Part shown: positions 11,686 to 56,264 of the stretch, piece after piece | Numbering within the stretch: the first letter of the stretch is position 1 | Layout of the letters: every line of letters begins with the position of its first letter | Origin: Anolis carolinensis | Taxonomy: Eukaryota | Reading direction: 5' to 3' | DNA: 64,000 nt | NCBI RefSeq assembly: GCF_035594765.1 | Contig: NC_085844.1 | Span: forward strand, 33,247,923-33,311,922 | The notes under the pieces: model-generated | Database searches by the model: none | What the model saw: the letters and a program-made list of their open reading frames with translations, nothing else | Told to the model about the DNA's origin: nothing | Position numbers and translations under genes: made by a program

Positions 11686-14600
11686 AGAGAATGCTTCTGG
11701 AACATGGCCACACAGCCCGAAAGACATACAACAACCCTGTGATCCCGGCCATGAAAGCCTTCGACAACACATTTATTGGTATTATTGAATTGCTTGGATT
11801 TTCTTATGTGTTGACACTCTATTGAAGAAATGATTGCATGATCTACTCTTAATTGAAACTTACCAATTGCAGCCAAGCTATACAGTTGCCCTTTCTTGGA
11901 CAGAACCTATGTGTTAATGCCATCTTTAGTTGCTGATACTGCAGATATAGTTTCTGTGCATTCCTCATTGCACAAAGCAACAATAGGCAGGCTCATTGAC
12001 AGATATACAGTTGGTTATATGAGGTCAAATCCAATGGAAGAGTGGTATAGCACAACCACCACGTATCCATCTGAGTGCAAATTTATTAGGATCTCAGCAA
12101 ACAGGTTTTTTAAAAGTCTGGGCAATGGTGATACACCTACAAATCAGCGAAGTGCTATGTATCTAATGCTGACCACCAATCCTTATAATTCATTATCTCT
12201 GCAGACCAAACAAGCTTCACTAAAATGCAGCACTCAGCAACAAGCAAATCACTTTGTGCTGAATTCTAAAAATCTTGCCATTAATACAGTGGGGGACTGC
12301 CAAGAAAGCTTTTGATTTGATGAAGATTTGATTTCTAGAGTTTTGAAGAAGCATAGGTGGCTGAAAATGCTAAATCCTTGGATTCTTTGGTTTCTATGGA
12401 TTTATTTTCCCCTATGTTCTGAATTTCATTCCTCCATTAGCCTCTCAGCTAGGCTGCCTATGAGTGTAATAAATAGGAAAAGACATTCGCAGTTCTTGTT
12501 GCATCGAGTGTGTAACCTTCTACTTGATCGTCTTGCTGGAAGAAAACAATCATCTGTCTTAGCAGATGGCAGCATGCAGGCATTGTGTCTATGGATGTAT
12601 GTTGTCCTTTGCAAATATGATATCTTGTTATGTGTTACTGAGCCTCTGAAAGGTCACTTCTGAAATAATGGTCTTGATTGATCACTGAGGATGAGCAATC
12701 AGCAATCGTGGGCCACACTAGATGTCACAGTTATCAAGTGCTGTCACTTAGCATGATGTAGATGTTCCTTCCTTATGCTTTAAAAACACATTTGCCTATT
12801 TGCTCATGCAACAAAGATGGTAAAGAGAAAAAAAGCTACATGGACCTCACTCTTTGTGACTGGTGGCTACTATGTCAGTGCTGTAGTAAAGATAAGTTTG
12901 CATTTTACTTTGCAACATTTGCATTGTGATTTGTTTTCTTGATATGCGTTGCTTATTATCATTCAATGTAATGTAATGATAGATTACATAGTGAAAGATT
13001 ATTTAACAAAAATATATGGGAAAATTTAGCTTATAGTGTATAAGTATTCACATCATTTATATTAGAGGTTGGTGCATTTTTAAGGTTAGAGTCCTTCCTG
13101 TGTTTATTTTGAAATGCTGGGTGAATAACCCCTCAGCCCAACCCCCCTGCCCCCATTTGCCATCACGGCATAACTCCATCCTTTTGTGCAGCTGACTGGA
13201 TCTTAAAGTGGGTTTGAGGTTCTATTGGGAGATACAATGCAGCTGCTGGTTATTGCCAATACTTGCCTGTATTTGTACCTTTATTATTAATTCCAGAGGC
13301 AGTTTACAAAGCTAAAATATCAGTAAAATTAAAAAATGCACCCAAAGTCAGAATAACAGAGATAAATAAAACTGTATCCAATTAAAATTATTTAAAAACA
13401 TTAAAGCCTGGCAGGAAAAAAAAGTGTTCAATCATTTGACTAAAGCACAAGAGGGAGGGAGACAGCTTAATTGGGTGCAGTTAACACATTTTTTTTAAAA
13501 AAAGAAGGTGTAATAAATTAGTTTAGATGCTCCCTAATTTATGAGAAGTGCACCATATCAGATACTGATATATCACATATGGTATGTATAACATATCTGT
13601 GACAACACCATGAGAAACAATTAATATCATCCTGACATCTTGTTTTAAACAAATTATGGGTGATATACATTTTAAAAAAATATGTCAAAGGAACTCAGGC
13701 ACCAAATGAGACTTCTAAAATTGCAATAATGACTATGGACCTCATCAAATTGATCAGATCCAACAGCAACAGGACAAAGGAAGAGTGTCCAAGGATGTTC
13801 TGTCATATGGATTATGTTGGAATTTGGTCCATACCAATACACAGAAAAGCATACAACCTGTACACTGTTAGTATCCCATAAAAATAATCTGAAATGACTC
13901 TGGATTCCACTATTGTACAACCAACCATGGAAAAGAGGTCGTGGTCTTTACCTCACCTATTGCATCACGGTCAATAAGCTGTCCATCCACCGAGTTCAAA
14001 ATGTAAGCGAAGAGTGTTTATGCACTTGTGGAATAGTTAGCTGGGTAGAACTCATTGTTAATATCAGGTGGGTGTCTTGTTAGGGGCACAGACACACTTA
14101 AGTTTCCCTTATTCTGGTATAAGCTTTTTTTCAGATGCCATGAAGGCTGGTATTCCCTTTGTCTCTTAGCAGTGCCCAAAGTCCCCTGATTTACTTGTAC
14201 ATCATCTGAAGTTCACTCTTCGTGGTCATACCCTGCAACCATATGCAATATAGTTAACAGCAGTGCCAAGACCTCATGAATCTCTGGGTTGATCATTTTG
14301 TGTTTGGCACATGACACTGTCAGATTTTTCTTCATTCCTGTCCACTTCTATGAAGCACAGATTGGCCATATAAGGATGGGGTAGGTGAAAGCTTTGGTGG
14401 CTGGATAGAAAGTCCAAGGGGATATTCTATAGTTCAGCCACGTGGAACTGTGGGACTGTGCTGAATCATATAGTTTTGCAACCTGAAGAAGGAAATCACA
14501 TGGCAATACTATATTCACTATTGTATTGTAACCTTTTTCTTAATTCCACAAAGGGAATTTATTTTTGTACTCTTAGTGCCCTGTAAAAGTGCAGCTAGAT

Positions 14601-22189: not shown

Positions 22190-22858
22190 AGGACTCCAGG
22201 CTATTGTAAGAGGGCCTTACTATGAACAGAAATGCAGACAACACAGTTCACAGCAGCTCATCACAAATTTAATGCCTAGGGACTTTTCCCAGTTTCCTTC
22301 CTTGCCAATATCGTGGTAGGTGAATTCTACAACTTGCTTTGTCTCAGGGCAGTGTTCTAATGAACGTGATTTGCTGGATTGAGGCTGCAGGCACTAAGAC
22401 TAGGGATGCGACATTTATGGTCCTCTTGTTATTGTTGTATTGCTTCTCCTTTCATTTTTCAACATTGGCTATGCTTGGCTAGGCTTGATGGTCAAACAAC
22501 CTCCCTGCCAAGTCTGGACTGTGTTTCAGTTCCACCACGACCAACTTTGCCTTGCCTTGTTATCCTAGCCTCGGACATTGAACCTGGGACTCCTTGAAAG
22601 ACCTTGCTTATTTCCCCACTCAAACTGCTTGGAAGTTTGAGTGTGTTTTGGTTATTGGATTTAAAACTTTGAACTCTAATACTGTACATCTAACTTCGTA
22701 TTACTGGACTATATTTGACCTTTCCTAAAAGTACTATTGCTGGACTATATACTCCGCTTATTTTTGTTTGACTCTTTTATTTCCTTAATAAAGATATTAG
22801 ATTGTTTATTGGCCTCCGTGTCTGATTCCCTGTGCTCTCGCAGCCTAGAGGCATCACA
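22190..22858 (+). mobile_element. Partial LTR (same family as 46970-47835), 5' end lost
   Basis: aaaactttgaactctaata, tggactatatttgacct and aataaagatattagat..tggcctc are shared with the reverse complement of 46970-47230; ends ..gaggcatcaCA. Start approximate. Confidence 0.8.
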
Positions 22859-45953: not shown

Positions 45954-46969
45954 AAGGTTCTATCTCTATGCTAGACAAATGACAACACACACACATTTTA
46001 AAAGTAGTCCCTGGGCCTTGTAATAACAGCCAATGAATTCTGCTTCTGCACATTCAACCATCTATGACTTCATTTTTTAAAAAAAATCCACAAAGCAAAT
46101 CCTGATTTTGCCACTTTATGTAAGGGACACAATTTTTCTATGCCATTGTATATAGTGGGATTTGAGAGGGGTCCTGTAACAAAACCCTAGCAGATACCAA
46201 GGGCCCACTGTACTTGAAAAAGTCTAATGAAAGATAACATAGGTTTTAAACATGGCTTAAATCTCCTTCAGATACTTAGGCTGCAATCCTATATGCCAAA
46301 CACAGAAAGCCAGCAACTTGCAAATCTTCTCATCATTCTGCAGATTCCACATAACAATTACGCTCGTAAAAAGACTCTCACTGGAAGGCTCGGCTCTTCT
46401 CTCTTCCCCTTTCACCCACAATATTTTTTTTTTTAAAAAGACATTGACTATTACTACTATGTTGCAGAGAATCTTTTTTCTGGAAGTTCTGTATGTTTTG
46501 TCTGCATTGCTGTTCCCAAAATGATTTTTTTTAACTTAAAAAAATTGAAGGCGTTTTAATATGATAAGTTGTTTACTTGTGCTTTAACCACTTTTTAATG
46601 TCATTTTTAGCTCTGCTTTATTTTGACTCTGTTGTAGTTTGCCATGGGTTCCATGTATGGAGGAAGGGCATTGTTACACAAAAATAGAAATGTAACCTTT
46701 TTAGATAGAAGACCTTTGGCTCTTATCTTACAGTGGCAGAAAGGTAATTGAAAAACAAGATAGTAGGTGGAAAGCAGTAGGGAAAAATGGGAGACTGCAC
46801 CACACATGGATGGATTGAATTAAGGCAGCCACGGTCCTTAGGATTTTCATGGTAAAAGACATTCAAAGGTGGTTTACTAGGTCTTATTCTATGTGGTATT
46901 CATAAGTTGGTGGCCCATTTAATCTGGCTGCTCAACAAAAGCCTATCTGACATTGCCGACCTTACCACC

Positions 46970-47835
46970 TGTCAGAACCCTGGCTGCTGGGCACCAATAA
47001 CCTTACACAGAGGCCAGTCTCTATCTAATATCTTTATTAAAGAAATATATAAAAGCAATAAAAACAAGTGAAGAATATTGTTCAGAAACAGACCTTTCAA
47101 AAGAGGTCAAATATAGTCCAAAAATGTATTGTCCAATAAATGATATTAGAGTTCAAAGTTTTAATCCACTTGACCGAAACACACACTCTTGCCAAGCAAT
47201 AGTGTGGGGAAATGTCAGAGTCTTAGAAGTCCAATGAAGCTTGACAGCAAAGCTGGAAATAAACTTGATTCTTGACTAGGTCCATGGCTAGAAACAAGAC
47301 AAAACGTGAAGCGTGGAACAGGGTCCGTGGTTAAACTGCAAGGCAAGGCAAGGCTCGAAAACTTGATCCGGGAAGCAAGGAACTGGGGTTACGAAGTCCA
47401 CACACGATCTCTCTCCTGAAGCTGATCAATTGACTCCGCAAAGAATCTCTCGCGCCAAACCCCTATATTGGGTCTCGTTTTCCCGCCAACAATCTCTTTC
47501 CCTAGAGAACGAGAAGCAAAACCCACTCTGTCCAGATGCATTACTCCTTAGAATTTCCCAAGGGAAGCAGACCTAATCAGCCAGTTGTTTGGCAGCGATT
47601 CTTAGACTTCTCCGATTAGCTTCTCTAACTCCTGTCTTTAGAATAAGATTCCTTCCTGGGAAACGGAGGGGAGTACTGCCCAAGGCCTGGTTTACTGAAT
47701 TCTTGAGGGCAAACATCAACATCCGGCAGGTGAAGGGACTCCGGCTCTTGTTGAACTGGCGAAAATCCCATGTTTTCATCTTCATCTGCCACGATAGTAC
47801 CAGGAACAGGACTACAAGGCCCATGAGGCATCACA
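46970..47835 (-). mobile_element. Solo LTR (Gypsy-like), 866 bp
   Basis: TG...CA termini; 5-bp TSD ccacc (46965-46969, 47836-47840); minus-strand aataaa near 47035 and TATA-like aatatagg near 47465. Confidence 0.93.
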
Positions 47836-48182
47836 CCACCAGCACTTGGTACCATCCGCATACCCTCTTGCACCACAAGATCATGCAATACTATCAAAAA
47901 TTAGTGCGGCGGTGAGCTGTGCTTCTGCATTTAGCCAAGTCAAAGGTTTGAAATCTTCATTCAATTCAATTTTTATAAGAATATACTAAAATTTGCAAAT
48001 TCTTCATAAATATCTAGAAGTTCTTCAAGGAATAAAGCCAATAGTCATTAACACAGATTTGATATGCTCTTTGAAAATATTATTTGATGAATATAGCTTG
48101 CAATTCTGTATACACTGAGATTAAATCCACTGCCTCATTTTGGAGTATACTTGGCAGTGGATTACATTGCATAATATGAGTA

Positions 48183-55049: not shown

Positions 55050-56071
55050 TGTCAAACTCACAATAAATACTATAGCTTAATCCCACCAACCACTCCATCA
55101 ACTATAGAGCAATTGAAATAGCAAAGCAGTTTATTGAAGAATATATGAATAAAAAACAAAGTCAAAATGTCAGAAATAGTCCACAGAATTCGCAGTACAG
55201 GAATAGCATCAAATACCAGGAACAAGGGGAGCCCCGGTGGTGAAGTGTGTTAAAGCACTGAGCTGCTGAATTTGCGGACCCAAAGGTCCCAGGTTCAAAT
55301 CCTGGGAGTGGAATGAGCGCCCACTGTTAGCCCCAGCTCCTGCCAACCTAGCAGTTCAAAAACATGCCAGTGTGAGTAGATCAATAGGTACCGCTCCGGC
55401 GGGAAGGTAACGGTGCTCCGTGCAGTCATGCCGGCCACATGACCTTGGAGGTGTGTATGGACAACGCCCGCTCTTCGGCTTAGAAATGGAGATGAGCACC
55501 AACTCCCAGAGTCAGACATGACTGGACTTAACATCAGGAGAAACATTTACCCTTTACCAGGAACAAATCCAAAACATGAGATTCAGGAACAATCCTTAAA
55601 ACTTGGAAGCATGGAACATGAGCAACAGGAAACATGGAACTAGAAATCCCTTAACAATCTTGACTTGGCAGGAGTTGTATCCTCAAAAAGCCTTTTGGTC
55701 TTGTTAATATAAACAGAAAATCATGCCTTCTCCCCTGAGAAACTGACAAACACTTTTTCGCTAACAAGCATCTTGACCTTCTCAAACTTTGTTGAGCAAC
55801 CCAGTGTTGACTAAATGTAAACCTCCTATCTAACTACTCATTAGACTGAGCACCTGGAGCCTCCCCCTCTGAGCTGATCTCTGCTTCTGATCCTGCTTCC
55901 CTAGTGAATGCCCTCTCTGGAATGTGTCCTTCAGATTCAGACAGCTCGTTTTCAGGGTTTAAAATATCCTGCTGCTGATTGTCCTGCTGACGTGCAGGCC
56001 CAGAATCCCCAGTGACATCTCCAGAATCCCCAGTGACATCAGGTACGGGCACAATCAAAGGCTGAACTACA
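55050..56071 (-). mobile_element. Solo LTR (Gypsy-like) interrupted by a Sauria SINE
   Basis: Minus strand starts TGtagttcagcc and ends gagtttgaCA; minus-strand aataaa near 55131; no matching TSD. Confidence 0.75.
55226..55554 (+). mobile_element. Sauria SINE, full length
   Basis: ggggagccccggtgg head; 12-bp TSD taccaggaacaa (55214-55225, 55555-55566). Confidence 0.95.
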
Positions 56072-56264
56072 AGTTCTGTGGAAGAGTTGAAATAAAATAA
56101 AAGATTTGATAGTGCCAGTATTTACAGATTTGCAATCTTGCCCTTGCACAGTTAGAACATTTTACAGTTCAGTTGTTACATTATGTCAGGCAACCAATTT
56201 TCATTGGCTTTAATGGCTTTCATTCACAGTAAGCCAAATATATAGGATTCCACTTGTAAACATT

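Follow-up and report, generated by a model that had tools for sequence, protein, structure and literature searches.

We report that U3 of a young chromovirus LTR family in Anolis carolinensis holds a conserved reading frame that continues pol through the PPT, and that this frame, which would give the integrase a C-terminal tail, closes on an arginine motif of the form RRS[AL]R[IL]xAK. Judging from the likeness of this motif to those of host proteins that bind nucleosomes, we consider it probable (roughly 0.6) that it anchors the integration complex to the nucleosome acidic patch.

Structure of the window LTR and its U3 frame

Within the window (the whole 64-kb stretch of DNA that was analysed), an 866-nt element on the minus strand (LTR1, 46970..47835) has TG...CA ends and is flanked on both sides by a 5-bp TSD (47836-47840 and 46965-46969), by which we recognised it as a solo LTR; it belongs to a young chromovirus family. 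Its minus-strand frame opens at base 2 (47834), ends in a stop codon at 47575-47573 and includes the HMGN/Dot5-like arginine motif RRSLRIAAK (47588..47614, minus strand), in agreement with the original prediction, which had read from base 2 a peptide with one frameshift and this motif at its end. In sister copies the U3-encoded integrase tail comprises 87 codons; in the window copy (47573..47834, minus strand) it is broken, a 2-base deletion near 47634 shifting the frame, and, the element being a solo LTR, no pol lies upstream of it.

As had also been predicted, the frame lies upstream of the TATA-like box (47461..47470, minus strand), which is found ~105 nt downstream of the tail stop. The likely transcript start, or U3-R boundary, is placed ~30 nt past the box (47430..47439, minus strand), and an AATAAA polyadenylation-like signal is present at 47033..47038 (minus strand). 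Because 10 nt at LTR position 399, ~30 nt after the TATA-like box, are complementary to the primer-binding site (PBS) of full-length copies, the whole peptide can be assigned to U3; we take the complementarity itself to reflect Tf1-type self-priming. To gauge chance occurrence of the motif, we read Markov-simulated 64-kb windows in six frames: RRSxR[IL]xAK appeared in 0 of 100, and the looser core RRSxR[ILV] was expected 0.29 times per window, so that the core by itself carries little weight.

Elsewhere in the window, a truncated related LTR (22500-22850, plus strand) consists of the 3′ part only, is 73% like the 3′ part of LTR1 and lacks the U3 tail. A further unit at 10417-11737, which we presume to be Penelope-type with inverted ends, has a 551-bp inverted repeat (99.8% identity) enclosing a minus-strand frame (10627-11190) whose end looks GIY-YIG-like.

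Continuity of the tail with pol

Among 5000 genome candidates, the best 40 were 97-100% identical to LTR1, and three full-length LTR pairs were recovered, all with 5-bp TSDs (3/3) and with LTRs 98.8-99.4% alike. Full-length copies carry gag followed by PR-RT-RNase H-integrase-SH3-chromodomain in a two-frame gag/pol arrangement, with no env; in full-length sister copies the chromodomain (PF00385, E 1e-09) is placed after SH3_Tf2-1, and the database proteins closest to them are labelled Anolis carolinensis. With this gag/pol order, a C-terminal chromodomain, TG...CA LTRs, a short TSD and a self-priming PBS, the element is a vertebrate chromovirus (Ty3/Gypsy) and not a retrovirus, probably one of the Amn-ichi kind.

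The frame of the integrase end crosses the PPT into LTR base 2 in 3/3 full-length copies (one of which lacks SH3 and most of the chromodomain), and at 30/30 loci retrieved with a chromodomain query it passes from chromodomain through PPT to LTR base 2 in one phase and stays open to RRSxR. On the strength of this continuity in 30/30 loci, we identify the U3 peptide as the C-terminal tail of the integrase, presumably translated and retained on the enzyme; in full-length sister copies it is 85-105 residues long and ends RRS[AL]R[IL]xAK. The original prediction had offered two options, an integrase tail running through the PPT or a separate accessory protein, and had proposed checking full-length proviruses for a frame open and continuous with pol. 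The three copies and the 30 junctions bear out the first option directly. Among close copies of LTR1 (32 rows, one a duplicate), 26 of the 31 distinct ones are open over the 87 codons; the motif is kept in 22 of these and altered in four, as post-insertion decay would give.

Some of the retrieved loci and records have structures of their own. At L010/L064 (G000:C2:220859666-220867169) a subfamily element is nested ~310 bp into the internal region of a window-family element, and at L062 (G000:C3:261299800-261308550) a LINE fragment with a 908-codon open frame, presumably CR1-type, lies inside a chromovirus. Four 5′ LTR copies on different contigs (L013, L016, L019 and L028) have a common upstream flank, so this insertion sits in a repeated or duplicated segment. 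Gene models P0147, P0214, P0298-P0300, P0009 and P0149 absorb chromovirus pieces or the LTR tail and are annotated as “uncharacterized” or fused host proteins.

The related LTR2 family

A second LTR (LTR2, 55114..56072, minus strand) is an older, decayed member of a related family, copies of which are ~75-83% identical to it. It had been predicted to share the phase, layout and motif of LTR1, and this part holds: its U3 frame (55753..56070, minus strand) is homologous to that of LTR1 and closes on the decayed motif RRSRCLLAKK (55782-55753, minus strand), and the family LTR starts three bases further out, the frame again beginning at base 2. The predicted frame is, however, stopped at 55836, before the motif, and the proposed LTR end at 55050 is unsupported, because likeness to a family copy runs solely from 56072 down to about 55114, a TSD-flanked SINE is inserted at ~55228-55551 and LTR2 itself has no TSD. 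This SINE, which we take to be a Sauria SINE, has three further copies of the same kind within the 64-kb window.

The last ~25 residues of the LTR1 and LTR2 families align without gaps. When family copies were projected on one open copy, stops occupied 26/2915 codons of the tail frame, compared to 158/2904 and 249/2907 in the other frames. The third arginine position, C in the window LTR2, is R in 15/30 family copies; alternatives at the first arginine are Q or stop and at the third C or H, which are those given by CpG decay. No internal region, neither gag nor pol, was found for this family, either at 30 of its loci or by three pattern searches (the search combining the LTR2 end with the primer site gave 27 matches vs 22 in the control, at chance level), and its link to pol is for this reason one that we only infer. 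TGTTGT-start LTRs, which are related to LTR2, do follow the chromodomain at three loci (L233, L246 and L250), and two of these LTRs show an RRSxR-like end. We considered and rejected Copia and BEL elements as the source of the TGTTGTAG LTRs, such LTRs sharing the PPT junction and the integrase type.

Purifying selection on the tail

To estimate constraint at the codon level, 37 of 38 junction copies (one dropped for an upstream break) were grouped into 13 subfamilies at 93% tail identity, and one natural copy per subfamily entered pairwise Nei-Gojobori comparisons (78 pairs). Tail dN/dS across the 13 subfamilies was 0.34 (codon bootstrap 0.25-0.45, an interval that is too narrow because the 78 pairs share ancestry), with values of 0.07 for the chromodomain, 0.15 for the integrase C-terminus, 0.51 for the middle of the tail and 0.67 for the linker with the PPT. 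As controls, the other forward frames of the tail gave 0.97 and 1.12, the reverse frames 1.07, 1.24 and 0.57 (in the frame that gave 0.57, third codon positions coincide with those of the coding frame), and non-coding LTR 0.73-0.83 in all six frames. Gap runs within the tail measured 36, 15, 30 and 17+1 nt, and those outside it were multiples of three in 12/73; stops numbered 0 in the tail frame vs 2-10 in the other two frames.

Across the nine motif codons pN was 0.094 and pS 0.753, and R1, R2, S3 and R5 were present in 13/13 subfamilies, with varied codons and almost no exchange of R for K. The tail is under purifying selection and its motif is conserved. The codon-level constraint on which the original prediction depended is thus borne out by the tail dN/dS, the 0 in-frame stops and the three arginines retained in 13 subfamilies. 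A DNA-level promoter element was also considered as the cause of motif conservation and rejected, silent sites being saturated (pS 0.75) while the residues are retained.

Distribution of the motif

The gapless alignment of the last 25 residues extends beyond LTR1 and LTR2 to several other old LTR families. Among fetched proteins with a post-chromodomain tail of at most 200 residues (166 tails, sampling being thin beyond Anolis and Podarcis), the motif is found in 8/166: 2 Anolis, 5 Podarcis and 1 other ENA record nearest amphibian proteins. It occurs 0 times in the 143,841 residues that make up the body of the fetched chromovirus proteins. Podarcis elements end RRSARLKA after an unrelated acidic linker, one more database protein ends RRSERL, and overall the motif follows unrelated linkers ~10 to 100 residues long. 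In P0194, an ENA record of a chromovirus most like amphibian ones, the PPT junction is followed by about six residues, RRSARIAAR and a stop. Among chromovirus integrases 3/118 have the motif and most amphibian, fish and fungal matches are without it; since most lack it, it is unnecessary for integration in general. A search of the ESM Atlas returned chromodomain clusters only, all under 0.9.

A candidate anchor to the nucleosome acidic patch

All 13 subfamily representatives (13/13) have the RRSxR[LI] core, arginines 1, 2 and 5 included, and several subfamilies read RRSARIAA. In yeast Dot5 (RRSARIAT), R1, R2 and R5 are required for nucleosome acidic-patch binding, and HMGN RRSARLSA and tardigrade Dsup RRSSRLTS are acidic-patch motifs (PMC13347269). 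These proteins and the elements described here have in common the RRSxR[LI] core, including the three arginines needed in Dot5, whereas here the motif closes a retrotransposon integrase and binding is predicted. According to our proposal, the C-terminal Pol/integrase tail would be read from the chromodomain through the PPT, translated from the 3′ U3 copy in genomic RNA and disordered; its RRS[AL]R[IL]xAK ending would serve as an arginine anchor tethering the integration complex to the H2A/H2B acidic patch, and tail and chromodomain together would provide a two-point chromatin grip. There are retroviral counterparts (PMC9040877): tethering of the integration complex to the acidic patch by a short arginine anchor is shown for foamy virus Gag and suggested for MLV p12. 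Those are retroviral Gag products, whereas the candidate anchor here lies in a Ty3/Gypsy integrase tail inside U3.

When an HMGN domain beyond the core word was looked for, the 87-residue tail matched no Pfam family even with E values allowed up to 1, and neither a whole single tail nor a tail-end profile matched HMGN or another acidic-patch binder in the PDB; the best PDB match of the profile was the CENP-C motif peptide 4X23 (E 0.071, not significant). Predicted together with H2A and H2B, the 39 residues at the tail end gave a complex that scored 0.01, with the alignment unused, and that counts neither way. That basic disordered regions often contain RRSxR-type words counts against the acidic-patch reading, and protease may possibly cleave the tail from the integrase.

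The strongest alternative accepts the tail as a selected part of the integrase and assigns the arginine motif to nuclear import or retention, or to DNA or RNA binding. A basic motif that follows an acidic linker and closes the protein would suit such a role, as would the C-terminal NLS of Ty1 integrase (titles cited in PMC3605345), and every selection result fits it equally. What tells against this reading is the pattern retained, R-R-S-x-R-aliphatic, in which the three arginines hardly ever exchange with lysine; HMGN, Dot5 and Dsup show the same pattern. Classical NLSs follow a lysine-rich pattern. We regard the NLS option as weaker than acidic-patch tethering, and this alternative overall as unlikely.

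Far less probable still is that the U3 frame serves additionally, through splicing or an internal transcript, to make a small accessory protein in the manner of HIV nef or MMTV sag. An ATG does form codon 2 in the TGTGATG families, but this ATG (LTR base 5) is absent from the related TGTTGTAG families, which share the frame. Within the 5′ LTR, transcription probably starts downstream of U3. The frame is continuous with pol in 30/30 loci, and the second option of the original prediction, a separate nef- or sag-like product, finds no support. Contigs from four runs that we guess to be RNA cover the element, and in one run a single contig passes directly from a position in gag to LTR base 1; we do not read this join as a splice product because it misses the frame of the tail and nesting like that at L010 gives the same join, in keeping with a nested insertion.

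Least plausible by a small step is a tolerated run-on of pol, in which an open frame and charge pattern are merely kept or promoter DNA happens to read RRSxR: chromovirus pol often runs briefly into the LTR (database proteins; PMC3605345) and the tail middle is under weak constraint (dN/dS 0.51), but the motif keeps its residues while its silent sites are saturated (pS 0.75), which excludes a DNA element, and it recurs after unrelated linkers of ~10 to 100 residues, so that this explanation is largely refuted.

FxGF repeats in a chromodomain-less sister lineage

The same U3 slot is occupied by helix-acidic-FxGF repeats in a chromodomain-less lineage (L152/L177-L201, G000:C1:11354381-11355099 and family; L203-L232). 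In one old LTR family, found by pattern search, the frame that opens at base 2 runs for 205 codons and contains three such repeats but no RRSxR, and a sister-lineage copy with internal sequence reads RT, RNase H, integrase, SH3 and then PPT, with no chromodomain. A search with the SH3 stretch returned 30 loci, with a chromodomain in 0/30 and the junction in frame in 27/30; tails carry one to three FxGF in 10/30 loci and a helix plus acidic stretch without FxGF in 20/30 (one young family), and long open pol frames are seen in many of the sister-lineage matches listed.

On an integrase tree of 42 rows, which is without Amn-ichi and Sushi references, the squamate elements cluster together, separate from the chromovirus proteins of amphibians, fish and fungi. 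The sister lineage (100/100) sits on a long branch inside this squamate group (100/99), the remaining members of which have chromodomains, and Podarcis adjoins it with weaker support (86/87). Given this nesting among chromodomain-bearing squamate elements, chromodomain loss looks derived, on a long branch. Among 1.84 billion representatives searched with a chromodomain-less alignment, FxGF tails were found in 3/137 new proteins, two of them named Anolis; in all, FxGF tails were found only in Anolis-named records or records without an organism name.

By sequence, the sister lineage, rather than the window LTR, has the layout of a TIM: a short helix with aliphatic anchors, an acidic linker and FxGF. 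The TIMs of JPO2/CDCA7L, IWS1 and MLL1 have the same helix, acidic linker and FxGF, and a series of up to three is found in IWS1 too (PMC9987994); in the parts of this review at hand, the FxGF part is essential for LEDGF/HRP2 binding, many TIMs are without FxGF and a transposon TIM is not mentioned. When single repeats were compared with 177,635 PDB sequences, one found as its best match the JPO2 motif in the LEDGF IBD fusion 6EMO (E 0.16) and two others did not match JPO2; single-sequence PDB searches with whole tails gave nothing useful. A 17-repeat profile, its repeats picked by the FxGF pattern, again gave 6EMO (JPO2 motif) as best match at E 1.2e-4 (next 0.25), a score that is inflated because the alignment was chosen by a pattern containing FxGF. 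We predict that the sister-lineage repeats bind the integrase-binding domain of LEDGF/HRP2, for which the U3 slot would here supply the ligand.

In the window family, the acidic-GF stretch DEDENMGF (47763..47786, minus strand), located from the subfamily alignment, belongs to a pattern DE[DE]E[NS]xGF found early in the tail in 13/13 subfamily representatives. It appears to resemble an FxGF motif minus the first F, and the TIM-like repeat could have arisen from this pattern or have left it behind. A one-FxGF family (L211, L224) has GRS[QH]RC near the C-terminus, possibly an RRSxR remnant. Upstream of one chromodomain-less element lies a tandem array of an 84-bp unit in ~35 copies (L202:2110-5087).

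Discussion

A pol tail coded in the LTR is known from the plant CRM group A chromoviruses, in which the pol frame enters the 3′ LTR and carries a targeting motif (PMC3059260 and PMC3605345). Coding within the 3′ LTR, in frame with pol, is common to this CR motif, the window family and the sister lineage. The CR motif replaces the chromodomain, whereas the window family has both chromodomain and tail and only the sister lineage is without a chromodomain; host kingdom and clade also differ, the copies described here are spread over many contigs, and the comparison is one of arrangement, not of sequence. Closer at hand, Anolis carolinensis is host to the chromovirus Amn-ichi (Piskurek et al., cited in PMC2774666). 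V-clade Amn/Sushi-like elements, as described in PMC2774666, agree with ours in host, domain order, chromodomain, two-frame gag/pol and TG...CA ends. For Amn-ichi we found no account of a long tail that is coded in U3 and carries a conserved motif, and the original paper may mention the overlap. The literature searched, outside which lay subscription papers, Repbase and GyDB, held no HMGN-like or acidic-patch motif and no FxGF motif in a retrotransposon integrase.

Since a sister lineage without chromodomain holds FxGF repeats in the slot, U3 looks like an exchangeable cassette of chromatin-tethering motifs. In its fullest form, namely that squamate chromoviruses use U3 as a cassette of host-mimicking tethers, combining chromodomain and HMGN-type acidic-patch anchor in most families or, in one derived lineage, bearing up to three true LEDGF/HRP2-binding TIMs, we hold this view tentatively, at a little short of even odds. 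HIV integrase binds LEDGF through folded domains, not through a TIM. A retrotransposon TIM would give access to the LEDGF tether of lentiviruses by a second route, independent of theirs: a lizard retrotransposon would have reached that tether independently, by motif mimicry, and the FxGF lineage would steer its insertions into transcribed gene bodies.

To our knowledge, site choice by vertebrate LTR retrotransposons is largely unknown, with the chromodomain as the sole recognised handle. One genome here holds young families with three predicted tethers (chromodomain plus arginine anchor, FxGF, and helix-acidic without FxGF), so that tether and insertion landscape can be compared in thousands of copies, and the motifs are testable as short peptides. 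In these elements U3, a region commonly annotated as non-coding, carries selected protein sequence.
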